The position numbers and the translations under genes are program-made. A stretch of 53,911 nt of DNA from Chloroflexota bacterium. Its GTDB lineage: Bacteria; Chloroflexota; Limnocylindria; P2-11E. The stretch is from assembly GCA_028876375.1 (NCBI GenBank), contig JAGWSB010000004.1, positions 1 through 53,911 on the forward strand, read 5' to 3'. Positions within the stretch are counted from its first letter, which is position 1, and each line of letters begins with the position of its first letter. Of this stretch, positions 6,812-40,066 are shown in pieces. Under the pieces are notes generated by a model. That model did not search any database. It was not told the DNA's origin and saw only the letters and a program-made list of their open reading frames with translations.

Positions 6812-8029
6812 GTGAAAGACGGAGGCCTGCGGCAGGCCGCTCTTCTCGGCGCCGTCCTCCTTCTCGTGCTGCTGCCGTCCAACGTGCCGGCGGGCGTCGT
6901 GCCGCTGCTGCAGCAGGAATGGTCGACGAGCGCGGCGCTCATGGGCGCGGTCGTCGGCGCGTACCAGCTCGGCTACGCCGTCGCCGTGCTCGTCGTCCTC
7001 CCGCTCACCGACCGCTTCTCCGCGCGGCGCGTCGTCCTCGCGTCCGTCGTGATCACGCTCGCCGCGAGCCTCGCCTTCGCGCTGCTCGCGCGCGATCCCG
7101 TCACGGCGATCGTCCTGCGCGTCATCGCCGGCGCGGGCCTCGCCGGCGCGTACATGCCCGGCGTGCGCATCGTCGCCGCCGCGGCCGATCCCGCGCGACG
7201 CGGACGCGCGGTCGGCCTCTACGTGTCGGCGTTCTATCTCGGCAGCTCGCTCTCGCTCCTGTTCACCGGCATCCTCCTCGGCCCGGTGGGCTGGCGCGGC
7301 GCGGCGCTCGCGCTCGCGTCCGCGACCGCGCTCGCGCTGGTCGTCACGCTCGCGACGCCGATCGCGACGGAGCGGCCCGCGGGCCGCGCACGCCTCGATC
7401 CGAGCGTCGTCCGCGAGCCGCGCCTGCTCGGCGCCGTCGTCGCTTACGCCGGCCACACCTGGGAGCTGTACGCGGCGCGCGGCTGGCTCGCGGCGTTCTT
7501 CGCCGTCGTGCTCGCCGCGCGCACCGGCTCTCCGCTCGAAGCCTCCGCGGTCGGGAGCCAGTGGGCGGCCGGCATGCTCGCCCTCGGCGTGCTCGGCGTG
7601 TCGCTGGGCGGGCTCGTCTCGGACCGCGCCGGCCGGCACGCGTCCGCGGCCGTCTTCGCGCTCGCGAGCGGCGTCCTCTCGATCGTGCTCGGGACGCTCG
7701 GCGCGGCGCCGTGGCCGGTCGTCGTCGCCGTCGGCTGCCTCCTCGGCCTTCTCATCTCGGCCGACTCAGCGATCTACTCGACGCTGGTGACCGAGACGGT
7801 GCCCGCCGAGCGGCTCGGATCGGCGCAGGCGATCCAGGCCTCCATCGGATTCCTCGCCGCGAGCGCGGCGCCGGCCGCGGCGGGGCTCGCGACGGACGTC
7901 GGGCTCGGCTGGCCGGGCGTGTTCGCGACTGCGGGCGCGGCGAGCATCCTCGCCGCCGTCGTCATGGCCGCTCAGATCCCGGGCAGGTCGAGGCCCTTCC
8001 GGCGCGCGAGGTCGAGCGCCTCCACGTAG
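6812..8029 (+). CDS. MFS transporter
   Basis: Many hydrophobic segments, [10 protein letters not shown] motif A-like, HTWELY; 3' end overlaps hutU. Confidence 0.85.
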
Positions 8030-9621
8030 CCCGCGTCGGCGTGGCGCATGACGCCGGTGCCCGGATCCGTCGTGAGGACGCGCCGCAGCTTTTCGCGCCC
8101 GAGCGGCGTCCCGTCGGCGACGGCGACCATGCCCGCGTGCAGCGAATAGCCGATGCCGACGCCGCCGCCGTGGTGCACGGACACCCACGTCGCGCCGGCG
8201 GCCGTGTTGACGAGCGCGTTGAGGATGGGCCAGTCCGCGATGGCGTCGCTGCCGTCGCGCATGCCCTCCGTCTCGCGGAACGGCGAGGCGACCGATCCCG
8301 AGTCGAGGTGGTCGCGGCCGATGACCATCGGCGCCGCGACCTTCCCCTTCTCGACGAGCTCGTCCATCGCGACGCCGAGCTCGGCGCGCTCGCCGTAGCC
8401 GAGCCAGCACACCCGGGCGGGCAGGCCCTGGAACGGGACGCGCTCGCGCGCGAGACGGATCCAGCGCACCAGGACGTCGTCGTGCGGGAAGAGCTCGAGC
8501 ACGAGGTCGTCGGTGCGCGCGATGTCTGCCGTGCTCCCGGACAGGGCGACCCAACGGAACGGTCCGCGGCCTTCGGCGAGCATCGGACGCAGGTACTCGA
8601 CGACGAAGCCGGGGTAGGCGAAGGCGTCCGCGAAGCCGCCCCGCTGCGCCATCGCGCGCAGGTTGTTGCCGTAGTCGAACGCGACCGCGCCGCGGCGCGC
8701 GAGAGCGACGATGGCCTCGCAGTGCCGCGCCATGCTCTCGAGCGAGCGGCGCACGTACGCGTCGGGGTCCGCGCGGCGGACGGGCTCGGGGTCCTCGACG
8801 CCGGCCGGGACGTATCCGTCGAGGGGGTCGTGCGCGCTCGTCTGGTCGGTCACGACGTCGACCGCGACCTTCCGGCGCACGATCTCCGGCAGCGCCTCGG
8901 CGGCGTTGGCCACGACCGCGATCGAGCGCGCGACGCGCGCGCGGCGGTAGCGCTCCACGCGCGCGAGCGCGTCGTCGAGCGAGGACGCGACCTCGTCGAC
9001 GAAGCCCTGCCGTCGCCGCCGCTCGACGCGCCGCGGGTCGACCTCGACGACGAGCGCCACGCCTTCGTTCATCGTGACGGCCATGGGCTGCGCGCCGCCC
9101 ATGCCCCCGAGGCCGGCGGTGACGACGAGGCGGCCGGCCAGCGTGCCGCCGAAGTGACGGCGCGCCACGGCGGCGAACGTCTCGTACGTGCCCTGGAGGA
9201 TGCCCTGGGTCCCGATGTAGATCCAGGAACCCGCGGTCATCTGCCCGTACATCGTCAGCCCCAGAGACTCGAGGCGGTGGAACTCGTCCCACGTCGCCCA
9301 GTGCGGGACCAGGAGCGCGTTCGCGATGAGCACGCGCGGCGCCCACTCATGCGTGCGGAAGACCCCGACGGGCTTCCCCGACTGCACCAGCAGCGTCTCG
9401 TCGGAGCGCAGGCGGCGCAGTGTGGCGAGGATGCGATCGAACGCGTCCCATGAACGCGCGGCGCGCCCCGTCCCGCCGTAGACGACGAGGTCCTCCGGCC
9501 GCTCGGCCACCTCGGGATCGAGGTTGTTCTGGATCATGCGGAACGCCGCCTCCTGCGGCCAGGCGGCGCAGTGCAGCTCGCTGCCGCGCGGGGCACGGAC
9601 CGCGCGGGGAACGGCGGTCAC
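7972..9621 (-). CDS. hutU: Urocanate hydratase
   Basis: [48 protein letters not shown]. Confidence 0.98.
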
Positions 9622-13601: not shown

Positions 13602-13961
13602 CTACTTACGCTCCTCTTTGTTCGCGTCGGAGACGCAGTAGGCCGTGTCGGGGATGGCCTCCAGGCGCTCCTCGGGGATGGGCCCGCCGCACACGACGCA
13701 GCGTCCGTAGGCGCCGTCGTCCATGCGCCGGAGCGCGTCCTGGATGCGCCCGATGCGCGCCTCGATCAGCCGCTGCTGCGTCAGGTCGAGCTCGCGCGAC
13801 TCCGTCTCCGTCGCCGCGTCAGCGGGGTGCTGGTCGCGCAGCGACAGCTCTCCGCCGCTCTCCTGCTGGCCGATCGCGATGCGCTCGCGGACCAGGGCGA
13901 GAGAGCTCTCGGCGTCGCCGAGATCGTGCTCCAGCCGGCGGCGCTGTGCGGCCATCTCCAT
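13602..13961 (-). CDS. TraR/DksA family zinc-finger protein
   Basis: DQHPADAATET, YGRCVVCGGPIPEERLEAIP..YCVSD. Confidence 0.88.
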   Translation of the reverse strand: MEMAAQRRRLEHDLGDAESSLALVRERIAIGQQESGGELSLRDQHPADAATETESRELDLTQQRLIEARIGRIQDALRRMDDGAYGRCVVCGGPIPEERLEAIPDTAYCVSDANKEERK

Positions 13962-14980: not shown

Positions 14981-16000
14981 GTGCCGGGGCCGCACGTCCC
15001 CTTCCCGCCGCAAGAGGCCGAGCTCGTCGAGGAGATCCCTCTCGGCGAGAAGTGGCAGTACGAGCCGAAGTGGGACGGCTTCCGCGGCGTGCTCGAGAAC
15101 GACGGCGGCGAGCTCGCGCTGTGGAGCCGGAACGGCCGGCCGCTCCTGCGCTACTTCCCCGAGCTGCGGCCGCTCGGCGACCTTCTCCCGCCGCACTCCG
15201 CCCTCGACGGCGAGATCGTCATCGAGCGCGAGGGGCGGCTCGACTTCGACGCGATGCAGCTGCGGCTCCACCCGGCGGAGAGCCGCATCCGCAAGCTCGC
15301 CGCGGAGACGCCCTCGACGTACATCGCCTTCGACGTCCTGCTGTGGGCGGGTGACCCGATCCACGCGCGGCCGCTGCGCGAGCGCCGTGCCGCGTTGCTC
15401 GCGAAGGCGAAGGGCTTCCGCATCTCCCCGGCGTCGACGGACGTCGCGCAGGCGCGCGCGTGGCTCGCGCGTCTCGAGACGCTCGGCCTCGACGGCGTGA
15501 TCGCGAAGCGCCTGGACCTGGCGTACATGCCGGGCTCGCGCGAGGCGGTGCGGAAGGTGAAGAAGCACAAGACCGCGGACTGCGTGATCGTCGGCTACCG
15601 CACGAACGGCACGCGCATCGCGGTCCTCAACCTCGGGCTGTACCGGCCGGACGGGACGCTCGACTTCGCGGGGCACACCTCCGGGATCGCGGGTCCGTTG
15701 CAGCAGCGGCTGCAGGAGATGCTGCCGCCGCTCCGCGTCGAGGAGGAGACGACGACCGGACGCCACCCCGGCGGCGAGAGCCGCTGGTCGCGCGGGCGCG
15801 ACCTCGAGTGGACGCCGGTGCGCCCGGAGGTCGTGTGCGAGGTGCGTTACGACAAGGTCGAGGAGGACCGCTTCCGCCACGGCACGCGCTTCCTGCGCTT
15901 CCGGCCGGACAAGGATCCGAAGGACTGCACCTGGGAGCAGGTGCGCCCGCGCCGCCGCCGCGGCGACCCGACGCTCGAGGATCTGCTGGTGACCGCCTAG
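14981..16000 (+). CDS. ligC: ATP-dependent DNA ligase (LigC-type)
   Basis: YEPKWDGFR, LDGEIV, AFDVL, DGVIAKR, TADCVIVG, RFRPDKDP. Confidence 0.9.
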   Translation: MPGPHVPFPPQEAELVEEIPLGEKWQYEPKWDGFRGVLENDGGELALWSRNGRPLLRYFPELRPLGDLLPPHSALDGEIVIEREGRLDFDAMQLRLHPAESRIRKLAAETPSTYIAFDVLLWAGDPIHARPLRERRAALLAKAKGFRISPASTDVAQARAWLARLETLGLDGVIAKRLDLAYMPGSREAVRKVKKHKTADCVIVGYRTNGTRIAVLNLGLYRPDGTLDFAGHTSGIAGPLQQRLQEMLPPLRVEEETTTGRHPGGESRWSRGRDLEWTPVRPEVVCEVRYDKVEEDRFRHGTRFLRFRPDKDPKDCTWEQVRPRRRRGDPTLEDLLVTA

Positions 16001-16980
16001 TCGCGCCCCTCGCGCCTCTTCTTCTCTTCGTACTCCTTCCGCCAGTCGCGCGGCGGACCCGTGCGCGTCCGCGGCTTCGGGCCCTTCCCCGGCGGCTTGA
16101 TCCCGAGCTTCTCGAAGAGCGGCGCGATGCTGCGCTTGGCGCTCCACATGTCCGCGGTGAGATCTCCCGATCGGCGCACGCGCTCACGCATCGTCGTCAG
16201 CGTGAAGTCGGCGGGATCGACGTCCGCGACCTCGCGCCAGCGCAGAGGAGCGGAGCAGCGCGCGTCGCTGGTCGGGCGTACCGAATAGGCGGAAGCGATG
16301 GTCCGGTCGCGCGCGTTCTGGCCGTAGTCGACGAAGACGCCGGTCCGCTGGCGCACGGCCCACGTCGTCGTCGCGATCGTCGGCACCCTCTTCTCGACCT
16401 CTTTCGCCATCGCCTTGGCGAAGCGCCGCACTTCGGGGAACTCGAGGTCTCGCTCGATGGGGGCGAGGATGTGCATGCCCGTCGCGCCGGAGGTCTTGGG
16501 ATAGCTCGCGAGCCCCAGCTCGTCCATCACGTCCTTCACGACGAGGGCGATCTCGCGAACGTGCGGCCACTGACCCTCCGCGCTCGGATCGAGGTCGATG
16601 AGGAGGTAGTCGGGGCGCTCCACGTCGTCGATGCGCGAGTGCCAGGTGTGGATCTCGATGCAGCCGAGGTTGGCGAGCCAGGCGAGCGACGCGGGGCTGT
16701 CCAGGACCGGGAAGTCCGCGTTGCGCCCGCTCGGGAAGTGGATGCGGAAGGTCTCGAGCCAGGCCGGGTGCGGGACCGGCACGCGCTTCTGGTAGAAGAA
16801 GTCGCCGTCGACGCCGTTGGGGTAGCGCTTCATCTGCGCCGGGCGCTTGCGGACGTGGGGCAGGACGGCGTCCGCGAGATCGACGTAGTACTCGATCAGG
16901 TCGCCCTTGGTGAGCGCGCGGGCGGGGAAGAAGACCTTGTCCTGATTCGTGAGCGCGACGTCGTGACCGCCGATGCGCAT
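15997..16980 (-). CDS. Standalone LigD-type primase-polymerase (Prim-PolC-like)
   Basis: KRYPNGVDG, FYQKRVP, IDLDP, KTSGATGMH, VDYGQNARDRTIASAYSVRP. Confidence 0.9.
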   Translation of the reverse strand: MRIGGHDVALTNQDKVFFPARALTKGDLIEYYVDLADAVLPHVRKRPAQMKRYPNGVDGDFFYQKRVPVPHPAWLETFRIHFPSGRNADFPVLDSPASLAWLANLGCIEIHTWHSRIDDVERPDYLLIDLDPSAEGQWPHVREIALVVKDVMDELGLASYPKTSGATGMHILAPIERDLEFPEVRRFAKAMAKEVEKRVPTIATTTWAVRQRTGVFVDYGQNARDRTIASAYSVRPTSDARCSAPLRWREVADVDPADFTLTTMRERVRRSGDLTADMWSAKRSIAPLFEKLGIKPPGKGPKPRTRTGPPRDWRKEYEEKKRREGRD

Positions 16981-19081: not shown

Positions 19082-19942
19082 TCAGACCGCGTGCTGCGCG
19101 AGCGGCCGCGGCAGCGGCTCCTCCTTCTTGACGCGCTCGGCCGCGCGACCGATGAGCACCGCGCAGTGCGCGCCGGAGAGCACCTTGTCCGCGGTCGTCC
19201 CCTGTAGGAAGCCCTCCCCGATCCCTGTCCCGCGCGATCCCAGGACGATGAGATCCGCGCCCAGGCCCCTCGCGCGCTCGAGGATCCGGTCGGCGACGTC
19301 GCCGCGCTCGACGACGATGTGCGTCGTCCAGAGGGGCGGGAGCTGGCAGGCCGCGACGTGGAGCAGGTCCTGCGCGCGCGTCAGGTCGACGCGCGCGTCG
19401 GGCAGGACGTGCATGAGCACGACGTTGGTATCGCGGGGCAGCGGGAGGACGGCGAGCGTGGCGATCGCGGCACGGGAGTCGGGCGAGCCGTCGACGGCGA
19501 CGAGCACCCGCCGCGGCGCATGGCGGCGCTCGCGTACTACGAGGACGGGCAGCGGCGACGAGCGCGCCAGGCTGCGCGCGGTGCTTCCGAGGATCGCGCC
19601 GGCGATGAGCCCGCGCCCGCGCGATCCGAGGACGATGAGCTCCGAGCGCGTCGCGACGGCAGTGGTGAGGATCGCCCGTGCGGGCGAGCCTGCGCCGACG
19701 TGGACGTCCGCGTGGATGCCGCGCGCGCCGAGGTGCCGCGCCGCGAGGTCGGCGATCTCCGCGGCGGCGGTCTCCTCGACCAGCGGTGAGATCCCGCCGT
19801 CGCCGCCCAAAGCCGCCGGGCGAAGCGGGACCACGGTGAGCACGGTCACGGTGTCCGTCTCACGGCGGTGCGGCATGTCGCAGAGCATCTCGAGGGCGAC
19901 GTCCGCGGCGGCCGAGCCGTCCGTGGCAAAGAGGATCCGGAT
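19082..19942 (-). CDS. Tandem-domain universal stress protein; probable ATC start
   Basis: IRILFATDGS, LGSRGRG, LGST, VAVDGS; AAGGAG lies 7 nt before ATC; paralog 34659..35594 starts MRILFATDGS. Confidence 0.85.
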   Translation of the reverse strand: MRILFATDGSAAADVALEMLCDMPHRRETDTVTVLTVVPLRPAALGGDGGISPLVEETAAAEIADLAARHLGARGIHADVHVGAGSPARAILTTAVATRSELIVLGSRGRGLIAGAILGSTARSLARSSPLPVLVVRERRHAPRRVLVAVDGSPDSRAAIATLAVLPLPRDTNVVLMHVLPDARVDLTRAQDLLHVAACQLPPLWTTHIVVERGDVADRILERARGLGADLIVLGSRGTGIGEGFLQGTTADKVLSGAHCAVLIGRAAERVKKEEPLPRPLAQHAV

Positions 19943-20116
19943 AGTGCCGCTCCTTTTCCTGCTTCTGGCTTCATCGAGGGTGTGGCCCGGTCCGTCGGTC
20001 ACGCTAGGGGCATACGGACGCACATCGGATGGCGGAGCGCGGTCGTCGGCTGGGCCGATCGCGTGTGCGTGCGCGCAGGTCGCTGGCCGCGCGGTCTCCG
20101 TCCGGTCGCTTCCCGT

Positions 20117-20148
20117 TACCCGAAAGGCTCTATGGCCCGAGACGGCCC
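20117..20148. promoter_or_regulatory. Tandem DosR-box-like sites in the divergent usp/hsp20 promoter
   Basis: tacccgaaaggctc and gcccgagacggccc, followed by a TAGCGT -10. Confidence 0.5.
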
Positions 20149-20178
20149 TGGCTAGCGTCGGACCCCGGAGGTGGAGCC

Positions 20179-20616
20179 ATGACACTCGCTCGCTGGACCC
20201 CGCTACGCGACCTCATGTCCATGCGAGAGGCGATGGACAAGCTATTCGACGAGAGCCTCATCCCGCCGGCGTTCCTCACGATGGAGCACCGGACCTTCCC
20301 GGTCGACCTGTACGAGACCGCGGAGACGTACACGCTGAAGGCGTCCCTTCCGGGCATGGACCCGCTCAAGATCGGCGTCGAGGCGATGTCCGATGCGGTC
20401 ACCGTGAAGGGTGAGCTGGTCGAGGAGAAGGAGGAGAAGAAGGGTGCCGTCGTACGCCAGGAGCGCCGGTATGGGCGCTTCGAGCGCACCATCGGGCTGC
20501 CCGTGGCGATCGATCCGGCCAAGGTCGAGGCCACGTACGAGCACGGCGTGCTCACGCTCGTAATGCCGAAGTCACAGGTCGTGCGCCCGAAGAGCATCGA
20601 GGTGAAGGTCCGCTAG
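20179..20616 (+). CDS. Small heat shock protein (Hsp20/alpha-crystallin)
   Basis: PVDLYET, ERRYGRFERTIGLP, ATYEHGVLTLVMPK; SD GGAGG. Confidence 0.95.
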   Translation: MTLARWTPLRDLMSMREAMDKLFDESLIPPAFLTMEHRTFPVDLYETAETYTLKASLPGMDPLKIGVEAMSDAVTVKGELVEEKEEKKGAVVRQERRYGRFERTIGLPVAIDPAKVEATYEHGVLTLVMPKSQVVRPKSIEVKVR

Positions 20617-22047: not shown

Positions 22048-22729
22048 TGCTGAGCATCGGGCCGGGCCGCACGCGCGGCGTCGCCACCCGCGCGCCGCGC
22101 GCCATGCGGAGCAGGTAGAAGAGCCAGATCGGGGTCGTCACGATCCCGCCCGTGAGCGCGTCCGCGATGCCGGGCACGAATACGTCGTCCGTATGCGGGA
22201 TCAGCCAGATGGACAGCGCTTGGTACACGCCGACGGGGAGAAGAACGATGGCCGAGAGCCCGAACACGAACGTGCCGAGCACGACGTAGGCGCGGTGGAG
22301 GGCCGACGTGTCGTCGTCGCCGCCGACCGCGCGCCGCCCGAGCTTGTGGCCGACGTAGAACAGCAGCCCGAACAGGCCCGTCGTCAGGCCGCCGATGAGG
22401 TCACCGGAGAGCCGCTGCTCGCTTTGATGCTGGTACTGCAGCGCCAGCTGTGCCGGCTCGGGGCACTGTCCCGGCGGGCAGGGTGTCACCAGCGGGGGAC
22501 GGCCGTAGGCCGTCTCGAGGCCGAAGGCGTTCCCCATGCCCCACGCCAGGAGCAGCGAGACGCCGACGGTGACCGTGATCACGCCGGCCAGAGAGGCGAG
22601 GTAGAGGTACAGGCGCAGCAGGCTCTGACCGGACAGGTCGACGCCCACCAGGTCGCGCCGGAAGATGAGCAGGAGCGCGAGGATGACCGTGCAGGTCACG
22701 CCGACCGCGACGAGGATGCCGATCGTCAT
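22040..22729 (-). CDS. Hypothetical membrane protein (several TM helices)
   Basis: Several hydrophobic segments, SD GGAGG, ATGA overlap with the upstream USP. Confidence 0.75.
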   Translation of the reverse strand: MTIGILVAVGVTCTVILALLLIFRRDLVGVDLSGQSLLRLYLYLASLAGVITVTVGVSLLLAWGMGNAFGLETAYGRPPLVTPCPPGQCPEPAQLALQYQHQSEQRLSGDLIGGLTTGLFGLLFYVGHKLGRRAVGGDDDTSALHRAYVVLGTFVFGLSAIVLLPVGVYQALSIWLIPHTDDVFVPGIADALTGGIVTTPIWLFYLLRMARGARVATPRVRPGPMLSIS

Positions 22730-23625
22730 GTGGACCACCTCCTGGAGGCTGTTCCCCGGACGACGAGGACCGAAGTGGGTGCGTGGGTGAGCACGCCGCG
22801 CGCGACGCTTCCGAGCGCGAGGCGGGCGAGGCCGGTGCGGCCGCGCGTGCCGACGACGATGAGGTCGGCGCCGGCGAGCCGCGCGCCGTCGATGATCGAG
22901 CTCACCGGCCCGCCGTCCATCGTGAGCGGCGTCGCCGAGAGCCCGCGCGCGGATAGGCGACGCGCGGCCTCTCGCGCGACTCGCTCGTGCGCCGCGCGCA
23001 TCTCGTCGATCATCTCCTGGTACGCGTCGGCGTCGACGGCACCCGTGCCGAACGGGTCGAGCATCGACGCGACCGTCGCGAGGTTGGCGACGCTCACCAC
23101 CGTCACGGCCGGCGCCGCCAGGAACGGCCACGTCGCGATGACCTCCTCGGCTTCGCGCGCGCAGTCGGATCCGTCCACGGCGAGGACCACGCCGCGGAGC
23201 GTGCTCGTCCGCGCGACCAGGACCGGGCACGGCGCGTGGTCGACGACCTCGGCCGAGACCGATCCGAGCAGCGCGGTGGCGATGGGACCGCGCCCGCGGC
23301 TGCCGACGACGATGACGTCGGCTTCCGTGCGGCACGCCTCTTCGACGATCGCGCTCGCGGGCCGGCCGAAGAGCAGCGTCGTCGCGATCTCGCGGCCGGG
23401 AGCGCGCAGCGCCTGCTGCGCGTCGGAGAGCTCGAGGTCGATGCCCTCGCGGATCCGCTCGTAGAGCGTCTCGTAGCGCGAGGCGTGCTCGTCGAGCATG
23501 CCGTCGATCGTCGGCGCGACGGCGAGGACCTGGATGCGGCTGGGCACGGGCCAGGCGATGGATGCGATGAGGGACTGCGCGCGAAGGGCGTCCGGCGACG
23601 CGTCGGTCGCGAAGAGGACCTTCAT
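22726..23625 (-). CDS. Tandem-domain universal stress protein
   Basis: KVLFATD, VVGSRGRG, LLGSVS, APCPVLV, GSVARGVLTHAP. Confidence 0.92.
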   Translation of the reverse strand: MKVLFATDASPDALRAQSLIASIAWPVPSRIQVLAVAPTIDGMLDEHASRYETLYERIREGIDLELSDAQQALRAPGREIATTLLFGRPASAIVEEACRTEADVIVVGSRGRGPIATALLGSVSAEVVDHAPCPVLVARTSTLRGVVLAVDGSDCAREAEEVIATWPFLAAPAVTVVSVANLATVASMLDPFGTGAVDADAYQEMIDEMRAAHERVAREAARRLSARGLSATPLTMDGGPVSSIIDGARLAGADLIVVGTRGRTGLARLALGSVARGVLTHAPTSVLVVRGTASRRWST

Positions 23626-24792: not shown

Positions 24793-25272
24793 CTACACCG
24801 GCATGGGTGCGACGCCGAGGTCGGCGAGGCGCGGCTTCTCGATCCGCGCGAAGTCCTCGTAGCGCATGCTCATCGTCGTCGTGTGCGTCCCCAGGCGGAA
24901 CGAGATCAGCTCGTTCTTCGCGAGCGTGTCGTCCATCACGGCGGAGAGCCCGTACAGATGCCCGAACGGCGGCATCGCGCCCGCGTCGCAATCCGCGAAG
25001 CGCCCCGCGAACTCGTCTTCGCTCGCGAGCCGGACGTGCTTCGCCTGGATGACGGCGCGCAGCCTTTCGAAGCTGAGCTTCTCCGACGCCGGCAGGACGA
25101 CCATGCGCATCTCGCCGTCGGCGACGACCATGACCACCTTCGCGAAGGCGCGCCCCTTCACGTGCTCGGTCCCCGCGACCTCCTGGGCCGTGAACGCGAG
25201 CGGGTGCTCGCGCACCTCGAACTCGACGTTGCTCTCGCGTAGATAGGCCTCGATCCGCTCCCTGCACTTCAC
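24793..25272 (-). CDS. YbaK/ProX family aminoacyl-tRNA deacylase
   Basis: FAKVVMV, F.DC..GAMPPFGHLYG, GTH; GTG at 25272 with SD GGAGG. Confidence 0.88.
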   Translation of the reverse strand: MKCRERIEAYLRESNVEFEVREHPLAFTAQEVAGTEHVKGRAFAKVVMVVADGEMRMVVLPASEKLSFERLRAVIQAKHVRLASEDEFAGRFADCDAGAMPPFGHLYGLSAVMDDTLAKNELISFRLGTHTTTMSMRYEDFARIEKPRLADLGVAPMPV

Positions 25273-25393
25273 GTCCGGCACCTCCGCGTATCGCATCCGG
25301 AGGCCGACGCTAGGAGGCGCGGAAGCGCGCCGTCACGGCTGTACGGACGATCGTGGGGGCGTCCTTGCGCACGTGGCGTGAGGCCGTACGCGA

Positions 25394-25577
25394 TCGGGGC
25401 ATGCAAAGCCCCGAGCGATCCGCGTCCGCTTCGGGATGGTGTCTGGACCTTCCCATCCCGTTCGGTGGGACCGACCCTTCGTGCCGCCACGTCGGGTCGT
25501 TCTTGATGCCGTCCCCAAGGCCGATCGCTTTGATGGGATCTCCGTTCGATCGGTCTCTCTGCGGATCCCTCGGGAGC
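25394..25577 (-). ncRNA. Candidate structured ncRNA (end-paired rod, 6S-like)
   Basis: -10 TACGGT 6 nt upstream; 5' GCTCCCGAGGGATCCGC pairs with 3' GCGGATCGCTCGGGGC (15 bp); inner stems TCCCATC/GATGGGA, GGGAC/GTCCC, CGACCC/GGGTCG; no credible ORF. Confidence 0.55.
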
Positions 25578-25620
25578 AGCGTCACCGTATCCGCGCCTCG
25601 CCTGCCACGACAGGTCGGAG

Positions 25621-25648
25621 GGGACCTTTCCCGCGCGACCAACGTCCC
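25621..25648. promoter_or_regulatory. Tandem DosR-box-like sites upstream of the ncRNA candidate
   Basis: gggacctttcccgc and gcgaccaacgtccc. Confidence 0.55.
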
Positions 25649-25849
25649 GCGTCGTCGGTGCGGAGCGATCGGGCCAGCCGCAGAACGTCGCCCTGACGTG
25701 CGACGGACGGTCGCCGATCACGTGTCCGGCGGGCCTAGGACGGGCATGGGCGGCGGCACAGGCTCGTCCTCGATCGCCGGCGGGGAGACCACGAAGGTCA
25801 CGGGGGAGCCGAGCGCTCGCCGTGCCGCCCGCGGCTCGGAGGTGACGAG

Positions 25850-26743
25850 GTGAAGGTGCTGCTCGCGACGGATGGGATGCCGTGCTCCCGGCCGGCCGAG
25901 GACCTCGTCGCGACCATCCTCTGGCCGCGCGGCAGCGCGATCGACGTCATGACGGCCGTGCGTCCCCTCGAGACCCCCGGCGCGATCGCGCCCGCGATGC
26001 GCGGCGCGATGCTGCGCACGTCGAAGCTGCCGGCGGAGGAGCACCTGCGGAAGCTGGCGGAGCGCATCGCGGCGCCCGGGCGTGTCGTGCGCACGGTCGC
26101 CGCGATCGGGCGGCCGGCGACCGCCATCGTCGAGGAGGCCGACCGCCTGCGGTGCGACCTTCTCGTCATGGGCAGCCGCGGACGCGGCACGTTCGCGTCG
26201 TCGCTCCTCGGATCGGTCGCCGCCGAGGTCGCGTTCCACGCCCCGTGTCCGGTGCTCGTCGCGCGCACCGCCCGCTGGGGGCGTGTCCTGTTCGCCGAGG
26301 ACGGATCGGCCGAGGCCAGCGGGGCCGCCGCGCTCCTCGCGACGTGGCCCATCTTCCAGGGACTGACGACGCGCGTCGTCAGCGTGGCGCCCATCGACGG
26401 CGGCCTGTCGGTCCCCGTCCCGGCGGGACCGGTCCGTCACGCGAACGCGAGCGAGCCGTTCGCGACCGCCGTCGACGCGGTGCGGACGGCATGGGCGGAT
26501 CTCGCGCGCGACCGTGCGCTCGAGCTCGAGCGGAGCGGGCTGCACGCGCGCGAGGACCCGCAGGTCGGCGACCCCGCCCGCGAGATCGTGAACGCGGCGG
26601 TGCGCTCGGAGACCGACGTCATCGTCATGGGCTCGCGCGGCAGGACCGGCCTCGAGCGGCTGCTCCTCGGGAGCGTCGCGCGGAACGTCCTCACCCACGC
26701 GCCGTGCTCGGTGCTCGTCGTGCGCCACGGGGTGGTGAGCTGA
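25850..26743 (+). CDS. Tandem-domain universal stress protein
   Basis: KVLLATDG, MGSRGRG, LLGSVA, APCPVLV, GSVARNVLTHAPCSVLVVR. Confidence 0.92.
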   Translation: MKVLLATDGMPCSRPAEDLVATILWPRGSAIDVMTAVRPLETPGAIAPAMRGAMLRTSKLPAEEHLRKLAERIAAPGRVVRTVAAIGRPATAIVEEADRLRCDLLVMGSRGRGTFASSLLGSVAAEVAFHAPCPVLVARTARWGRVLFAEDGSAEASGAAALLATWPIFQGLTTRVVSVAPIDGGLSVPVPAGPVRHANASEPFATAVDAVRTAWADLARDRALELERSGLHAREDPQVGDPAREIVNAAVRSETDVIVMGSRGRTGLERLLLGSVARNVLTHAPCSVLVVRHGVVS

Positions 26744-32151: not shown

Positions 32152-34662
32152 TCATGCGATGAGCCCGCCCATCACGCGCCGCTTCACCACCTCGACGACG
32201 CCGAGGTAGGTGAGGGCCGCGGCCGCGAGGAAAGCGAAGTAGGCCGCGGGCAGCGCGACGAACCCGAGGACCGCCGCGGCCGGCGTGAACGGCAGGACGA
32301 TCCCGGCCGCCACGACGCCGACGGCGCTGACGGCGAGGGGCAGGCTGGGCCGGCTGCGCCACGGATCGCCGGCGGTACGGATGACGAAGATGACGAGGGT
32401 CTGCGTCGCCAGCGATTCGACGAACCAGCCGGTCTGGAAGAGCGGCGGCGAGGCATCGAGAAAGGTGAGCAGGACGACGAAGGTGAGGAGGTCGTAGGCC
32501 GAGCTGATGGGCCCGATGAGGATCATGAAGCGCTGGATCATGCGGATGTCCCAGCGCCGCGGCTTTCGCGTGAAGGTCACGTCGACGTTGTCGGTGGGGA
32601 TGGTGATCTGCGCCAGGTCGTAGAGGAAGTTGTTGAGGAGGATCTGGCGGGGGAGCATCGGCAGGAACGGCAGGAACACCGAGGCGGCGGCCATGCTGAG
32701 CATGTTCCCGAAGTTCGAGCTCGTGCCCATGAGCAGGTACTTCACGACGTTGCCGAAGGCCTTGCGCCCGTCGATCACGCCCTCGTGGATGACGTCGAGC
32801 CGACCTTCGTGGAGGATCACCGACGCGGCGTCGCGCGCGACGTCGACGCCGTCCGTCACCGAGACGCCCACGTCGGCGATGTGGAGCGACGGCGCGTCGT
32901 TCACGCCGTCACCGAGGTATCCGACGACGTGCCCGCGTCGCTTCAGGGCGAGGAGGATGCGGCTCTTCTGCTCCGGCGAGACGCGCGCGAAGACGGCCGT
33001 GCGCTCCGCGAGCGCGCCGAGCGCGGCGTCGCTCACGCGCGCGAGGTCGCTGCCGAGGACGATCGCGCCGGGATCCATCCCGATCGCCTCGCAGACGTGG
33101 CGCGCGACGCGCTCGTTGTCCCCCGTCAGCACCTTGAACTCGATCCCGTCGCGGCGCAGGGATGCGAGCACGGCGCCGACGCCCTCGAGCGGCGGATCGA
33201 GGAAGGCGACGAATCCCGCGAGCGACAGGGCCGTCTCGTCCTCCGGTCCGTAGCGCGCTTGCAGCGGCACGGGCCGCGCCGCGACGGCGAGCACGCGGCA
33301 GCCATCGCCGCTCAGCCGCTCGAACACCGCCAGCGCGCGGGCGCGCTCCGACGCGCCGAGCGGCGCGTCTCCCTCGCCCGCCGACGTGCAGACCTCGAGC
33401 ACGCCTTCGGGAGCGCCCTTCGTCACGAGGAGGCGCTGCGCGCCGCGCGCGACGATCACCGAGAGGCGCCGGCGCACGAAGTCGAACGGGACCTCGTCCA
33501 CCTTCGTCCACCCCGCCTCCGCCGCCTCGCGGTCGAGGATGGCCGCGTCGAGGGGGCTGCGCACGCCGGTCTGGAACGCGCTGTTGAGCGCGGCGAGGCG
33601 CAACGCGTCGCGGCTCGGGTCCCCGAACGGGCCGAGCGAGCGGTCCACGCGCATCTCGCCCGTCGTCAGCGTGTTCGTCTTGTCGCTGCAGAGGATGTCC
33701 ATGCTTCCGAAGTTCTCGATCGCGGAGAGGTCCTTGACGATGACGCCGCGCTTGGCCATGCGGAGCGCGCCCGCGCCGAGCGTGACCGTCGTGATCATCG
33801 GCAGGAACTCCGGCGTGAGCCCGACCGCGAGCGCGATGCCGAAGAGCAGTGACTCGAAGGGGTCGTGCCGCGCGACGATCCCGACGAGCACGACGAAGAG
33901 GACGAGGAAGAAGATCGTCCGCATGATGAGAAGCCCGAAGAGCCGTGCGCCGCGCTCGAACTCCGTCTCGGGCGGTCGCGCCGCGAGCTGGCGAGACACG
34001 TCGCCGAAGATCGTCCCTCTTCCGGTGCGCACGACGACGGCCGTCGCCGTGCCGCTGAGGACGGAGGTCCCGAGGAACACCATGTCCTCGCGCTCCGCGA
34101 GGGGCACGTCCGGAGGCGCGTCCGGCCTCGCCTCTTTCTCTACCGGCAGCGACTCGCCCGTGAGGGCCGCCTGCTGTACGTGGAGATCGCGCTCGTCGAG
34201 GATCCGCGCGTCGGCGGGGACGAGGTCCCCGGCGCCGAGCCGGATGACGTCGCCCGGGACGAGGTCGCGCTGCGGGACCTCGGACCATGCCCCGTCGCGC
34301 AGCACCGTGGCCGTGGGAGCGACGAGGCCGCGCAGCTCCTCGGCGGCGCGCTCGGACCGATAGGTCTGCACCAGCGTGAGCGCGCCGCTGAGCACGACCA
34401 TCGAGGCGATGATCGTCGCGTTCGCGGCGTCGCCGAGGGCCGCGGAGACGACGCACGCGGCGAGGAGGATGAGCACGAGCGGGCTCGCCGCGAAAGCGAG
34501 CATGCGCCGGGCGAGCTGTGACGCCGGTCGTGCGATCGGCTCGTTCGGGCCGACGCGGCGCAGGCGCCCCGACGCCTCCGCCTCGCCGAGCCCGCCCGCG
34601 CCGGTCGCGAGCGCGCCGAGCAGATCGCCGACGCTCAGCCGGTCGAGGTCGCCGGCGGTCAC
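32152..34662 (-). CDS. mgtA: Magnesium-translocating P-type ATPase
   Basis: TGES, AVGLTPEFLP, DKTNTLT (variant phosphorylation motif), GDGVND, SSNFGNMLS, FQTGWFVESL. Confidence 0.9.
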   Translation of the reverse strand: MTAGDLDRLSVGDLLGALATGAGGLGEAEASGRLRRVGPNEPIARPASQLARRMLAFAASPLVLILLAACVVSAALGDAANATIIASMVVLSGALTLVQTYRSERAAEELRGLVAPTATVLRDGAWSEVPQRDLVPGDVIRLGAGDLVPADARILDERDLHVQQAALTGESLPVEKEARPDAPPDVPLAEREDMVFLGTSVLSGTATAVVVRTGRGTIFGDVSRQLAARPPETEFERGARLFGLLIMRTIFFLVLFVVLVGIVARHDPFESLLFGIALAVGLTPEFLPMITTVTLGAGALRMAKRGVIVKDLSAIENFGSMDILCSDKTNTLTTGEMRVDRSLGPFGDPSRDALRLAALNSAFQTGVRSPLDAAILDREAAEAGWTKVDEVPFDFVRRRLSVIVARGAQRLLVTKGAPEGVLEVCTSAGEGDAPLGASERARALAVFERLSGDGCRVLAVAARPVPLQARYGPEDETALSLAGFVAFLDPPLEGVGAVLASLRRDGIEFKVLTGDNERVARHVCEAIGMDPGAIVLGSDLARVSDAALGALAERTAVFARVSPEQKSRILLALKRRGHVVGYLGDGVNDAPSLHIADVGVSVTDGVDVARDAASVILHEGRLDVIHEGVIDGRKAFGNVVKYLLMGTSSNFGNMLSMAAASVFLPFLPMLPRQILLNNFLYDLAQITIPTDNVDVTFTRKPRRWDIRMIQRFMILIGPISSAYDLLTFVVLLTFLDASPPLFQTGWFVESLATQTLVIFVIRTAGDPWRSRPSLPLAVSAVGVVAAGIVLPFTPAAAVLGFVALPAAYFAFLAAAALTYLGVVEVVKRRVMGGLIA

Positions 34663-35594
34663 GCCACCCCGGCCGGCACTCCTTCGCGCCGCGGCCTCGC
34701 TTTCGCGCTCACGCGCTCCGGCGCGCGAGCGACGAGGACCGCGCAGTGCGCGTTCTCCAGCAGCTCGTCGGTCGTGCTCCCCTGGAGGAAGCCCTCGCCG
34801 CGCAGCGAGCGCCCGCGGGCGCCGATCACGACGAGGTCGCTGCCGCTGCCCGCGGCGACCTCGAGGATCCGCTCCGCGGGACGTCCGCGTTCGAGCTCCA
34901 TGCGCACCTGCACTCCCTCCGGGAGCAGCTTCCCCGCGCGCGACAGGATGTCGAGCGCGTCCTCGCGGTCGCAGCGCTCGACCGTCGCCTGCAGCTGCTC
35001 GGCCGACGCGTCGCCGTGCGCCGTGGGCGTCGCGCGCTCCGGAAGGACGTGGAGCAGCGTGACCTCGAGATGCTTGGGAAGGGGGAGCGCCGCGAGCGTG
35101 CGGACCGCGACGTACGCGTCATCGGATCCGTCCGCCGCGACGAGGATGCGGCGCGGCGCCTCGCGGCGCTCGCGAGCGACGAGCACGGGGATCGGTGAAT
35201 GCCGCGACACCGCTCGCGCGGTGCTCCCGAGCACCAGCGCGGCGATCCTCCCCAGCCCGCGCGAGCCCATGACGATCACGCCGGCGCCCTCGGACCGCGC
35301 CACCTCGATGATGGTCTGGGCGACGGAGCCTTCATCGATGCGCGCCTTCGTCGGCACGCCCTTGGCGCCGACCTTCTCGCGGACCGTGCTCGCGAGCCGG
35401 CGCGCGGCCGCGGTCTCCTCCTCCGCGATCTCCGCGAAGTACATGCCCGTGCCGTCGATGCCGACCCCGGTGTAGCTGTGGACCGGCACCGCGAGGACCG
35501 TGACGTGATCGGAAGCGCGCAGCGGGAGCGCGAGGAGCATGTCGAGGGCGACGTCCGCCGTGGCGGACCCGTCGGTCGCGAACAGGATGCGCAT
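34659..35594 (-). CDS. Tandem-domain universal stress protein
   Basis: MRILFATDGS, MGSRGLG, LGSTA, AHCAVLV; SD TAAGGAGG. Confidence 0.92.
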   Translation of the reverse strand: MRILFATDGSATADVALDMLLALPLRASDHVTVLAVPVHSYTGVGIDGTGMYFAEIAEEETAAARRLASTVREKVGAKGVPTKARIDEGSVAQTIIEVARSEGAGVIVMGSRGLGRIAALVLGSTARAVSRHSPIPVLVARERREAPRRILVAADGSDDAYVAVRTLAALPLPKHLEVTLLHVLPERATPTAHGDASAEQLQATVERCDREDALDILSRAGKLLPEGVQVRMELERGRPAERILEVAAGSGSDLVVIGARGRSLRGEGFLQGSTTDELLENAHCAVLVARAPERVSAKARPRREGVPAGVA

Positions 35595-37148: not shown

Positions 37149-38591
37149 GTGATGGAAAGGGAGAGACGGGTGATCCCGCGCCGCATCGAGATCGCGGCGC
37201 TGGTCCTGCCGTCCGCGCTCTTCGCCGGCCTCGCCCTCGTGGACTTCGCCCTCCTCGAGCCCTACCTGCCGCCCGGCATCTCGCACCTCGTGTTCTTCGC
37301 GCTCGGCGTCGCCGGCGTCGCGGCCTTCTCCTACGTCATCTTCGACCGCATCCGTGACCTCCAGATGCGCGAGATCGAGCAGCGGCGTCGGCAGGCGGAG
37401 CTCGCGGACGCGCTCGACCGCCGGGGGCGGCAGCTCCAGGCGCTGAACGAGGCCGGCCTCACCCTGTCCGCCGAGCTCGAGAGCGCGTCGGTGCTGCAGA
37501 AGATCGTCGACCTCGCGCGCGTCGTCGGCGGGTCGAGATACGCGGCGCTCGGCATGTTCAACGAGAACGGCGAGGTCGTGCAGTTCCTCACCTCGGGCAT
37601 CTCCCCGGAGGGGCGCACGAAGATCGGCCCGCTCCCGCGCGGCCGCGGGCTCCTCGGGCTCCTCCAGGACGAGCAGCGCCCCATCCGGCTGCGGTCGATC
37701 GCCGACCATCCGGCGTCGGTCGGGTTCCCTCCGAACCATCCGCCCATGGCGAGCTTCCTCGGTGTGCCCATCCTGTGGCGCGGCCGTTCGGTCGGGAACC
37801 TCTATCTCACGGAGAAGATCGGCGCCGAGGAGTTCTCCAGCGAGGACGAAGAGGCGCTGCTGACGCTGGCCGCCCAGGCGGCGATCGCGATCGAGAACGC
37901 GCGGCTCTACGAGCAGGTCGGACGCATCTCCGTTCTCGAGGAGCGGCAACGCATCGGGATGGATCTCCACGACGGCGCGATGCAGTCGCTGTACGGCGTG
38001 GGCCTCCTCCTCGAGGATGCCGCGGAGCGCACGCCGACGGGCGAGGCGCGCAGCCCCATCGACCGCGCGGTCGAGCTCCTCAACGGCACCATCGCCGACA
38101 TGCGCCGCTACGTGATGGGTCTGCGCCCCATCCGAGGCGCGGAGCGTCCGCTCTCCGAGTCGCTGCCGACGCTCGCCAAGGCGGTCGGCGACCAGGCCCG
38201 GCTCGACGTGCGCGTCGACGTCGACCCCGACGCGGAGCGCGACCTCGACCCCGAGCAGCGCGAGGCGATGTTCTACGTCGCCGCGGACGCGCTCACGAAC
38301 GTCGCGCGCCACGCGCGCGCCACGCGCGCGAACATCCGATTCCTGCGCCGTGACGGATCGGCGGTGCTCGAGGTCCAGGACGACGGCGTCGGGTTCGATC
38401 CGGCCGTCCGCGCGCCCGGACTCGGGCTCCGCAACATGCGCGAGCGGGCGTTCGTCGCGGGCGGGCGCTTCGAGGTGGGATCCGTCCCCGGCACCGGCAC
38501 GACCGTGCGGCTCGAGCTGCCGCTCGAGGGCCCCGAGGCGGCCGTCGGCACGGCCCGGATGCGCACGGGCGAGAATACGAGCGTCAGATGA
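37149..38591 (+). CDS. DosS/DosT-like GAF sensor histidine kinase (HisKA_3), membrane-anchored
   Basis: Two N-terminal TM helices; GAF with HPASVGFPPNHPPMASFLGVP; ERQRIGMDLHD; DDGVGF, GLGLRNMRERA. Confidence 0.9.
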   Translation: MMERERRVIPRRIEIAALVLPSALFAGLALVDFALLEPYLPPGISHLVFFALGVAGVAAFSYVIFDRIRDLQMREIEQRRRQAELADALDRRGRQLQALNEAGLTLSAELESASVLQKIVDLARVVGGSRYAALGMFNENGEVVQFLTSGISPEGRTKIGPLPRGRGLLGLLQDEQRPIRLRSIADHPASVGFPPNHPPMASFLGVPILWRGRSVGNLYLTEKIGAEEFSSEDEEALLTLAAQAAIAIENARLYEQVGRISVLEERQRIGMDLHDGAMQSLYGVGLLLEDAAERTPTGEARSPIDRAVELLNGTIADMRRYVMGLRPIRGAERPLSESLPTLAKAVGDQARLDVRVDVDPDAERDLDPEQREAMFYVAADALTNVARHARATRANIRFLRRDGSAVLEVQDDGVGFDPAVRAPGLGLRNMRERAFVAGGRFEVGSVPGTGTTVRLELPLEGPEAAVGTARMRTGENTSVR

Positions 38592-39238
38592 GCGAGGAGA
38601 AGCCGATCCGGGTCCTGGTCGTCGACGACCACGAGGTCGTGCGCGAAGGTCTGCGCACGCTCATCGGCAAGCAGAAGGGCATGACCATCGTCGGCGAGGC
38701 CGCCTCGGCGAAGGAAGCGATCGAGACCGCGGCGCGCGCCCGTCCCGACGTCATCGTCATGGACGTCCGGCTCCCCGACGGCAGCGGCATCGAGGCCTGC
38801 CGCGCGATCCGCGAGGCGCGCCCGGGGACCGGCGTGATCATGCTCACCTCGTACGCCGACGACGATGCGCTCTTCGCCGCGATCCTCGCGGGCGCCGCCG
38901 GCTACCTGCTCAAGGACGCGAAGGGGAACACGGTCGTCGAGGCGATCACCGCGGTCGCCGAGGGCCGCTCGCTCCTCGACCCGACCGTCACCGGCAAGGT
39001 CCTCGAGCGCGTGCGCAAGGGCCCCGAGGAGGACCCCGGCCTCGCGTCGCTCACCGACCAGGAGCGCAAGGTGCTCGAGCACGTCGCCGAGGGGAAGACC
39101 AACCGCGAGATCGGCGAGATCATGTTCCTGTCTGAAAAGACCGTGAAGAACTACGTCAGCCGCATCTTGGACAAGCTCGGCCTCGCGCGCCGGGCCGAGG
39201 CGGCGGCGTACATGGCGAAGCGCCGGCCCAAGTACTAG
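38588..39238 (+). CDS. DosR/DevR-like NarL-family response regulator
   Basis: VDDHEVVREG, MDVRLPDGSGIE, LTDQER, FLSEKTVKNYVSRIL. Confidence 0.92.
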   Translation: MSEEKPIRVLVVDDHEVVREGLRTLIGKQKGMTIVGEAASAKEAIETAARARPDVIVMDVRLPDGSGIEACRAIREARPGTGVIMLTSYADDDALFAAILAGAAGYLLKDAKGNTVVEAITAVAEGRSLLDPTVTGKVLERVRKGPEEDPGLASLTDQERKVLEHVAEGKTNREIGEIMFLSEKTVKNYVSRILDKLGLARRAEAAAYMAKRRPKY

Positions 39239-39367: not shown

Positions 39368-40066
39368 ATGCAGACGGCAACAACGCAATCACCTGTCCAG
39401 TCAACGTCGACCTCTGAGGTCAAGCGGCCCGTGCGCATCCTCCTCTGCGACGACCACGAGGTCGTGCGCGAGGGGCTGCGGACCCTCTTGGCCGGCCGGT
39501 CGGACATGCGTGTGGTCGCCGAGGCGGGCACCGCGGCGGACGCCATCGAGGCGGCCGCGCGAGAGACGCCGGACGTCGTGATCATGGACGTCCGCCTCCC
39601 CGACGGGAGCGGGGTCGAGGCCTGCCGCGCCATCCGTGAGATCCTTCCGGCGACGCGCGTGATCATGCTCACGTCGTACCCCGACGACGAGGCGCTCTAC
39701 GCCTCGATCGTGGCCGGCGCCTCCGGCTACCTCCTCAAGCAGACGCGCGCACGCGCGCTCGTCGAGGCCATCGAGACCGTGTCGCGGGGCCGCGCCCTGC
39801 TCGATCCGGACGTCACCGCGCGCGTCCTCGAGCGCGTCCGCAAGGGCCGCGCCGACGAGGACCCCGCGCTGGGGGCGCTGACCGACCAGGAGCGCCGCGT
39901 GCTCGAGCAGCTCGCCACCGGCAAGACGAACCGCGAGATCGGCGAGGCGCTGTTCCTCTCCGAGAAGACGGTGAAGAACTACGTCAGCCGGATCCTCGAG
40001 AAGCTCGGCCTGCACCGCCGCGCCGAGGCCGCCGCGTTCGCCGCGCGCCGAGGGATGAGCTCCTAG
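39368..40066 (+). CDS. Second DosR/DevR-like response regulator
   Basis: Close paralog of 38588..39238 with the same recognition helix FLSEKTVKNYVSRIL. Confidence 0.92.
   Translation: MQTATTQSPVQSTSTSEVKRPVRILLCDDHEVVREGLRTLLAGRSDMRVVAEAGTAADAIEAAARETPDVVIMDVRLPDGSGVEACRAIREILPATRVIMLTSYPDDEALYASIVAGASGYLLKQTRARALVEAIETVSRGRALLDPDVTARVLERVRKGRADEDPALGALTDQERRVLEQLATGKTNREIGEALFLSEKTVKNYVSRILEKLGLHRRAEAAAFAARRGMSS

Follow-up and report, generated by a model that had tools for sequence, protein, structure and literature searches.

The stretch of DNA analysed here (the window, 53,911 nucleotides (nt) of a Chloroflexota genome) carries a YbaK-like gene and a divergently transcribed tandem universal stress protein (USP) gene that are separated by 553 bp, and within this gap, on the minus strand, lies a predicted small RNA (sRNA) of about 174 nt. 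The fold that is conserved among its relatives is a four-way junction, and the long stem that closes it is termed P1. The RNA is a paralog, itself diverged, within an sRNA family that is not catalogued and that was found in one Chloroflexota class, and it is very probably a real sRNA of a new family. The first-pass annotation of the tract had proposed either a DosR-controlled, hypoxia-induced decoy of RNA polymerase similar to 6S RNA or a new class of non-coding RNA. The second proposal is supported, the element being structured, non-coding and without a match in Rfam 15, and the first is considered below together with the other explanations of the element. The genes and features of the locus are collected in Table 1.

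A four-way junction RNA on the minus strand

The 184-nt minus-strand sequence folds with -86.9 kcal/mol (z -3.52), a stability reached by none of 200 shuffles, and a 176-nt version gives z -5.25 against shuffles, a range of z -3.5 to -5.3 that bears out the annotation's expectation of a fold better than that of shuffled sequence. The plus strand forms a fold just as favourable (z -5.43), so that the energy does not give the strand. Strand assignment is instead provided by P1, in which one pair is G.U in 26/30 sequences of one alignment (A6) and in 45/45 of another (A8), and the adjacent pair is often U.G; on the opposite strand these wobbles would be A.C, and the promoters and U-rich tails described below agree with the minus strand. 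A plus-strand RNA was considered as a candidate and rejected, its specific long-range helix being broken in the genus relative G006 and the P1 wobbles and tails favouring the minus strand.

Among 60 relatives, BLAST finds the tract in two, both of the same genus (93% identity, in G004, and 80%), and the three-way genus alignment keeps a core of about 165 nt with both flanks divergent. RNAalifold on these three sequences yields P1 and three hairpin arms, 6 of the 54 pairs being compensated. The wider alignments give the same picture on a larger scale. In A6, which holds 31 sequences, 93.0% of cells are paired, compared with at most 48.4% when the partners are slid, and both-side changes occur in 34 of 54 pairs; in A8, built from 46 sequences at pattern-scan loci, 91.1% of cells are paired (slid partners reach 48.0% at most) and 26 of 51 pairs have changed on both sides, and in neither alignment does any of 500 shuffles reach the observed value. 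Both alignments were fitted to a covariance model and are thus biased towards it, which has to be set against these values. Among the individual helices, P1 is 99.7% paired over 30 distinct sequences, P2 (helix 3) shows both-side changes in 9 of its 11 pairs and P4 (helix 9) in all 8 of its pairs, with a G-C to A-U compensation visible in G006. The helices are therefore kept by compensatory changes both within the genus and across genera, as the annotation had anticipated for a genuine RNA. MAFFT with RNAalifold gave no useful consensus on the small members of the family, for which covariance-model alignments were used instead, and a candidate pseudoknot between the loop and P4 was dropped as not conserved.

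Much of the local anatomy is as first annotated: the hexamer TACGGT at 25589-25584 and the G at 25577 are present, the 5' 17 nt (25577-25561) pair with 25423-25408, and the GGGAC/GTCCC (25515-25511 with 25471-25467) and CGACCC/GGGTCG (25499-25494 with 25477-25472) helices and the 3' hairpin UCGGGGC/GCCCCGA (25415-25392) are found. The exception is the long-range helix UCCCAUC/GAUGGGA, from which the rod-like appearance of the element derives. Only 3 of 31 members have a partner for all 7 bp, and the pairing is broken and uncompensated in the two closest relatives; covariation supports local hairpins around a four-way junction rather than a rod with a central bubble, and GAUGGGA pairs locally within P4. 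The alternative 3' hairpin occurs in the window and in G004, and is lacking in G006 and in other genera. The annotation also saw no credible open reading frame (ORF), and this stands: the ORFs overlapping the tract have no Pfam match and are rejected by a GC3/GC2 coding filter that does pick out the genes on either side, and the relatives differ by indels of 1, 2 and 3 nt.

Table 1. Features of the predicted sRNA, its putative promoter and the surrounding genes of the window
Feature	Coordinates	Strand	Basis or remark
Predicted sRNA, ~174 nt, DosR-box short-type paralog	25404..25577	minus	covariance-model match and conserved core
P1 5' strand GCUCCCGAGGGAUCCGC	25561..25577	minus	pairs with 25408-25423
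P2 hairpin with 13-nt signature loop GAGAUCCCAUCAA at 25530-25542	25517..25557	minus	
P3 arm: GGGAC/GUCCC, CGACCC/GGGUCG, inner CGUG/CACG hairpin	25467..25515	minus	covariation helices 5-7
P4 arm: CCG/CGG and CGGGAUGG/CCAUCCCG hairpin	25426..25465	minus	
P1 3' strand, then UUUG at 25407-25404	25408..25423	minus	
Alternative 3' hairpin CUCGGGGC-UUUGCAU-GCCCCGA	25392..25415	minus	overlaps P1 3' strand
-10-like hexamer TACGGT	25584..25589	minus	6 nt upstream of G25577; no -35 TTG element
DosR-core-like box GGGACGTTGGTCGC	25635..25648	minus	one mismatch to GGGAC-N4-GTCCC; -74 from P1
Second, irregular box GGGAAAGGTCCC	25621..25632	minus	2-nt spacer
YbaK-like aminoacyl-tRNA editing-domain gene	24793..25296	minus	Pfam tRNA_edit E 2.4e-22; ~108 nt past the RNA
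Tandem USP gene, divergent	25850..26743	plus	Pfam Usp E 1e-47, two stretches
Tandem USP genes of the island, four	19082-20185, 22726-23625, 25850-26743, 34659-35594		
DevS-like GAF-HisKA_3 sensor kinase	37149..38591	plus	Pfam; GAF best PDB match 2VZW (6.6e-38), also DevS entries 2Y8H, 2W3D (E about 1e-37)
DevR/DosR-like NarL-family response regulator	38588..39238	plus	best PDB match 3C3W DevR, E 3.3e-58, 199.7 bits

An uncatalogued RNA family with an invariant loop

Homologues were collected with two covariance models, R1 made from three genus sequences and R2 from 31 sequences, against which the window copy scores 218.7 and 167.8 bits, respectively. R1 finds matches in 77 of the 92 genomes of the taxonomic family and in 20/20 of the high-quality ones, and these matches are of two kinds. 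The first is a gene of 192-199 nt, present once in most matching genomes; the second, 170-186 nt long and referred to here as the short type, comprises by manual count from the match coordinates 19 copies in 17 genomes and 4 of 9 genera, the window copy among them. When R2 is applied to the whole class (records labelled Ca. Limnocylindria or Chloroflexota), 102 of 151 genomes match, including 48/49 of the own family and the single genome (1/1) of a sister family of the same order. Two further families of the class match in 22/44 and 30/50 genomes with members of only 78-122 nt and a few of 157-163 nt, prevalences that have to be read in the light of R2 being tuned to the long form, and a class family with genomes of about 1.1 Mb gives 0/6. 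Outside the class, none of 134 Chloroflexota genomes matches R2, and 9 of the 16 same-class genomes in the same phylum-wide sample do.

A pattern scan over 185,579 species genomes returned at least 120 stretches, 80 of them listed, and R2 confirms 46 of those 80; among the matches listed, 43 of the 46 carry the labels Chloroflexi, Chloroflexota, Chloroflexia or Ca. Limnocylindria(les). Three confirmed members (L108, L120 and L121) sit on contigs of 2-24 kb labelled Deferrimicrobiaceae, Sulfomarinibacteraceae and Gemmatimonadota, and are probably Limnocylindria contigs in wrong bins. Two weak R2 matches (35-37 bits, about 178 nt) at G010:C6:169439-169616 and G030:C3:100385-100564 lie 6 and 20 kb from the DevR orthologue of their genomes and could represent additional island paralogs, still more diverged, of a fifth set of genomes. 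Genomes flagged as unpublished enter the counts for R1 (G012, G036, G080, G099), for R2 (also G291, G309) and for the DevR survey below (G069, G100), and two of them feed A6 and the promoter tallies; no conclusion depends on these alone.

No catalogued family accounts for the element. The 4227 models of Rfam 15, which include Ms1, raiA, Y RNA-like and riboswitch models, give no match in the window at the gathering threshold, and on 25200-25800 at E ≤ 10 no match covers the element. The 6S (RF00013) and Ms1 models, which the annotation had singled out, thus do not match the element, and RF00013 has no match across the whole own genome at E ≤ 1. Nor does any Rfam 15 family match the canonical copies of the own genome or four sister-family representatives at E ≤ 1; over all these searches the hits returned are to unrelated models and at chance level (E 0.14-5.4).

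Members of the family range from 78 to 199 nt, occur in 1-3 copies per genome and share a near-invariant P1 (5' CCCGARGGG... paired with ...CUYCGGG 3') together with one to three hairpins that expose a 13-nt apical loop, GAGAUYRCAUCAA. This loop is found in every member examined and is invariant at 11 of its 13 positions. The 193-nt form has three signature loops. The window type lacks 12 nt of loop 2, a deletion that leaves the truncated motif GGCAUCAAG in the P3 arm, and loop 3 is degenerate in the genus, so that a single intact family loop remains in the window copy, at 25530-25542 on P2; with its P1 and UUUG tail this copy nonetheless has the parts by which the family is defined. The smallest members (78-81 nt) appear by inspection as one long hairpin, in which a few irregular pairs link P1 to a stem of 5-6 bp that carries the loop. 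A short U-rich tract after P1 is likewise shared by the family, five or more T within 10 nt being counted in 39/84 canonical and 8/16 short copies. The genome of the window also encodes a 193-nt copy at C134:756-948 and, about 130 nt upstream in the same orientation, a copy of 99 nt, and all 5 occurrences of the loop motif in this genome fall within its three family RNAs. The idea that the loop mimics rRNA was rejected, two look-alike strings (on C1 and C97) falling in no Rfam RNA.

Family members are probably free-standing RNA genes, since their neighbours vary by lineage and G006 has no same-strand gene downstream. Depending on the lineage, they adjoin MoaA and PNP-type phosphorylase genes, convergent UPRTase and phosphatase genes or an arrestin-like gene. 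In the own family, the 193-nt loci have a divergent PcrA/UvrD helicase gene in 20/23 cases and a downstream ECF sigma/anti-sigma pair in 21/23. The gene order observed at L022-L155 is PcrA/UvrD (divergent), small sRNA, 193-nt sRNA, ECF sigma and RskA-type anti-sigma (20-21 of 23 loci); at the 193-nt locus of the own genome an ORF at the contig start takes the place of the sigma operon, and the N-terminus of its product resembles what we take to be an IS1595-type transposase. The YbaK-like gene next to the window copy has a homologue in G006 that is divergent from the RNA, so that the linkage of the two is not fixed.

Two promoter types and a dormancy-like island

The two kinds of copies differ in what precedes them. 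Of 84 distinct canonical copies, 66 have a promoter of the form TTGnnn-N16-19-TAnnnT that ends 7-9 nt before P1. Upstream of it lies the motif TGTGGATAA, scored in one orientation, which we take to be the reverse complement of the DnaA-box consensus. With up to two mismatches it precedes 84/84 canonical copies as against 16/321 control windows from the same loci, with up to one mismatch 68/84 as against 7/321, and 69/84 copies have two or more. Its position is fixed at -55 from P1 in 82 copies, and a second motif stands at -85 in 48. These DnaA-like arrays abut the -35 element (canonical loci L022-L167; in the own genome C134:750-1300, locus L041), and nowhere in the own genome is the looser motif packed more densely than at the C134 sRNA locus. 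The arrays suggest that the canonical copies may be under DnaA control. A link to the origin of replication itself was considered and rejected, the sRNA genes lying 432, 744 and 823 kb from dnaA in three genomes with both on one contig; in the own genome they are on different contigs. The strict DnaA box (up to one mismatch) has 61 sites in this genome. Its densest cluster, TTATCCACA, TTTTCCACA and TTGTCCACA, is on the minus strand at C124:8690-8739 (locus L208), the boxes 21 nt apart and directly following the dnaA ORF (7261-8655), and is likely oriC or the dnaN promoter.

Short-type copies, tallied for 16 of the 19, have neither the DnaA-like box (0/16) nor the TTGnnn-N16-19-TAnnnT promoter (0/16). 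Instead, 11/16 carry a box of the type GGGAC-N4-GTCCC (up to two mismatches), compared with 8/64 control windows, a sequence that we take to be the DosR core consensus. In several genera these boxes keep constant distances from P1, namely -50 to -53 and -73/-74, and the window box at 25635-25648, at -74, occupies the position of box A of the other short-type copies. The annotation had described two DosR-like boxes here. Two boxes of the GGGA...TCCC type are indeed present in 25621-25648, and the second of the two has a 2-nt spacer and a position that is not conserved.

The regulator that might act on such a box is encoded 12-13 kb from the RNA, where the DevS-like kinase and DevR-like regulator genes are adjacent. 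For the latter, the runner-up PDB match is VraR (156 bits), and the segment EKTVKNYVSR, which is identical to the aligned segment of Mycobacterium tuberculosis DevR, contains chain positions 179, 182 and 183, lysines and an asparagine that are presumably the base-contacting residues of DevR. A second NarL-type regulator, 68% identical, follows at 39368-40066. Both RNA and regulator genes belong to an island (12811-41157) that resembles a dormancy regulon: besides the four tandem-USP genes it includes genes for Hsp20, a zinc alcohol dehydrogenase, a P-type cation ATPase, a Lon-like protease and a ferredoxin, a content similar to that of the mycobacterial DosR regulon, and all 5 tblastn USP matches of the own genome are on the window contig. 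At the island edge (14981-16980) are a LigD-type ATP-dependent ligase and a primase-polymerase of the kind used in non-homologous end-joining repair, adjoined by a stand-alone receiver domain and a DksA-type zinc-finger gene (13602-13961). Elsewhere, 8 of the 15 other short-type copies have a USP gene within their locus of about 3 kb, in one case as a fragment only, and a DevR-like gene lies 3-16 kb away on the same contig in 5 of the 17 genomes that hold a short-type copy.

The fixed positions of the boxes, together with the DevR-like and DevS-like genes in the window, make DosR-type control of the window copy plausible, with the balance tipping slightly in its favour. Several observations, however, weigh against it. 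The box at 25621-25632 is off the -50 to -53 site and has not been kept in G004, the relative with 93% identity, and the first box might just as well serve the divergent USP gene, which lies 202 nt from it. Perfect GGGAC-N4-GTCCC sites number 13 genome-wide, no more than scrambled palindromes would give (9 of the 13 lie outside crude ORF calls), and their neighbours (an MFS transporter, hydrolase/S1, LigB, a tRNA synthetase and a GAF-GGDEF gene) are not of dormancy type; the other island promoters have only weak boxes. DevR orthologues occur in 65 of 92 family genomes, in 16/17 holders of a short-type copy and 49/75 non-holders, a weak association among related genomes that are not independent. 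A claim to a wider regulon is held back, because the perfect sites are not over-represented and their neighbours are not dormancy-type genes. Of the annotation's DosR-controlled polymerase decoy, the DosR part thus stands as plausible, with boxes at 11/16 copies versus 8/64 controls and a DevR-like regulator at hand, and the decoy part lacks support. That the element is both a real sRNA of a new family and under DosR-type control is, taken jointly, somewhat better than an even bet.

Function, rival explanations and known systems

The preferred mechanism begins with the DevS-like haem-GAF kinase and the DevR/DosR-like regulator, which would activate a -10-only promoter through the box at 25635-25648. 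Transcription would begin near G25577 and produce an RNA of about 174 nt that folds into the four-way junction, with P1 and the short U tract both ending and protecting the transcript. The RNA would then act in trans via the GAGAUYRCAUCAA loop of P2 and via P1, in which the G.U pair is conserved, and these two features may be binding sites of a conserved protein that is titrated or scaffolded by the RNA. Its housekeeping paralogs in the same genome, with one loop and three loops, respectively, would be transcribed from sigma-70-type promoters flanked by the DnaA-box-like motifs, and the island copy could supply the same activity, or compete with it, under DosR-type low-oxygen or redox stress. 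Protein binding is favoured because the loop is invariant at 11/13 positions amid covarying stems, is partly self-complementary, occurs in 1-3 copies and has no complementary target in the own genome; a trans role through loop-protein binding nonetheless remains a tentative proposal, ahead of each alternative and short of an even chance. Against it, searches of the own genome (89.8% complete) detect no TROVE/Ro60, CsrA, Hfq or RRM_1 (Pfam), only one intact loop is left in the window copy, and 13 of the 16 short-type copies are followed after 5-223 nt by the start of an ORF on the same strand, which would suit a leader role in cis.

In such a cis role, P1 and the U tract would be a conditional terminator, and a factor binding to the loops would decide whether transcription continues into the next gene, which in the window is the YbaK-like one. 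Some of the downstream ORFs indeed begin within 5-18 nt and have a Shine-Dalgarno sequence, canonical copies often precede a same-strand gene (ECF sigma, PNP-type phosphorylase or arrestin-like) and the alternative hairpin of the window competes with the P1 3' strand. The genes downstream of short-type copies are, however, mutually unrelated (YbaK-like, HisKA kinase, PFOR, BON, TusA, DksA-like and unassigned), in G006 and at the 81-nt copies the RNA is followed by a convergent gene or by no gene at all, the alternative hairpin is limited to two genus members and, where two family RNAs stand in tandem, each has its own promoter. A leader or attenuator function is therefore considered unlikely.

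Equally doubtful is a base-pairing sRNA in which the invariant loop serves as a seed, possibly as a kissing loop, for mRNAs. An exposed apical loop that is invariant at 11 of 13 positions and repeated one to three times per RNA would suit such a function, and sRNAs are able to base-pair without Hfq in many lineages that do not have this protein. A scan of both strands, however, finds no complement of the loop elsewhere in the own genome, and no target is shared when RNAduplex pairs the five loop segments with 1892 crudely predicted translation-start regions, the top matches being driven by GC-rich flanks. The loop is also partly self-complementary (GAU/AUC), with flanking G.A and A.A juxtapositions, which suggests a structured loop.

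The possibility that the window copy is a decaying duplicate, a non-functional remnant of the 193-nt gene that has come to lie beside a USP promoter by chance, would explain the loss of 12 nt from loop 2 and the degenerate third loop, the patchy occurrence of the paralog type (17/92 genomes, 4/9 genera) and, in G004, an adjacent USP gene reduced to a 30-aa fragment match; it is nevertheless very unlikely, all four helices being compensated within the genus and across genera and the paralog type having a conserved promoter layout of its own with fixed spacing.

Least probable of all is the 6S-like or Ms1-like decoy that mimics open promoter DNA and sequesters the holoenzyme in hypoxia, for which the similar length (~174 nt), the long closing stem, the location in a stress island, the 193-nt paralog just upstream of an ECF sigma/anti-sigma pair in 21/23 family loci and a 6S function otherwise unaccounted for in the class (the Rfam 6S model finds 0/16 class genomes and none in the own genome, compared with 35/151 in the phylum) can be cited, and which is contradicted wherever 6S identity can be tested: neither the element nor the canonical copies match 6S or any other Rfam model at the thresholds given above, the covariation fold is a junction with hairpin arms instead of a rod and bubble, the rod-forming UCCCAUC/GAUGGGA pairing is not conserved, there are several copies per genome, and the sister-family members are single or double hairpins of 78-122 nt, too small for a 6S architecture.

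Returning to loop-protein binding in trans, the most far-reaching form of this proposal is a class-wide riboregulator in which DnaA-controlled housekeeping copies and a DosR-activated paralog with fewer loops, switched on when oxygen is low, share one conserved partner that both would contact through the GAGAUYRCAUCAA loop and the G.U-bearing P1. This is a speculative extension and rather improbable; if true, the family would couple the status of replication initiation to entry into dormancy. To our knowledge, an RNA layer in cell-cycle and dormancy control has not been described in any bacterium, no DnaA-controlled sRNA is known to us, and paralogs split between DnaA-box and DosR-box promoters are an arrangement we have not seen described. 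A literature search for DnaA boxes and small RNAs had no DnaA-regulated sRNA among the matches listed, one for non-coding RNAs of Limnocylindria found no paper, and literature on structured RNA motifs of Chloroflexi consisted only of general motif-discovery papers, the motifs of which are presumably deposited in Rfam. Limnocylindria are abundant, essentially uncultured Chloroflexota of freshwater and soil, and what has been gained for them is a well-supported structured RNA family in more than 100 genomes, whose stems covary strongly and which keeps its 13-nt loop invariant and its G.U pair conserved. As the family is small, modular and invariant in sequence at the positions that count, a search for its partner and structural work are feasible with synthetic RNA. 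If the DosR assignment is true, the presence outside Actinobacteria of a DosR-type island that encodes an sRNA would mean that this stress module, together with its RNA component, is older or more mobile than thought.

Among known systems, 6S RNA is defined by a closing stem, a large central bubble and a terminal stem, encoded by a gene of about 180-200 nt. The 174-199-nt members described here resemble 6S (RF00013) and Ms1 in length, in a closing stem that pairs the ends, in their association with stress and in having their own promoter, but differ from them in the lack of any model match, in the four-way junction that replaces rod and central bubble, and in the existence of 78-122-nt members and of multiple copies. 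CsrB, RsmY and RsmZ are multi-hairpin sRNAs that titrate a protein through GGA motifs in their loops. The one to three hairpins with one invariant loop and the terminator-like stem of the present family are similar to these and compatible with multivalent protein binding; the loop, however, is GAGAUYRCAUCAA, any GG(A) downstream of it is variable, P1 encloses the hairpins and CsrA was not found. The 6C and LhrC sRNAs, in turn, are multi-loop RNAs that base-pair through C/U-rich seeds directed against the Shine-Dalgarno sequence; they share with the present family the repeated conserved apical loops, here in a lineage in which Hfq was not detected, whereas the loops described here are not C/U-rich and no conserved target was found for them in the own genome.

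With respect to regulation, the closest parallel is DrrS (MTS1338), a DosR-regulated sRNA of Mycobacterium tuberculosis (PMC5360333), to which the window RNA compares as an sRNA apparently under a DosR-type regulator and near genes of dormancy-regulon type. The window RNA differs from DrrS in belonging to another phylum, in showing no relation in sequence or structure (no Rfam match), in a DosR link that consists of boxes and context, and in being a paralog of housekeeping sRNAs with a different promoter type. CcnA, a cell-cycle non-coding RNA of Caulobacter that is reported to be controlled by CtrA and to base-pair with mRNAs (bioRxiv 10.1101/756452), has a comparable promoter tie to the replication and cell-cycle machinery, which in the present family takes the form of the DnaA-box-like motifs; CcnA is not homologous, and the tie to DnaA suggested here comes from motifs and concerns the canonical paralogs only. 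The family of the window RNA is thus new, although RNAs of this general kind are familiar, and its closest analogies are functional only.

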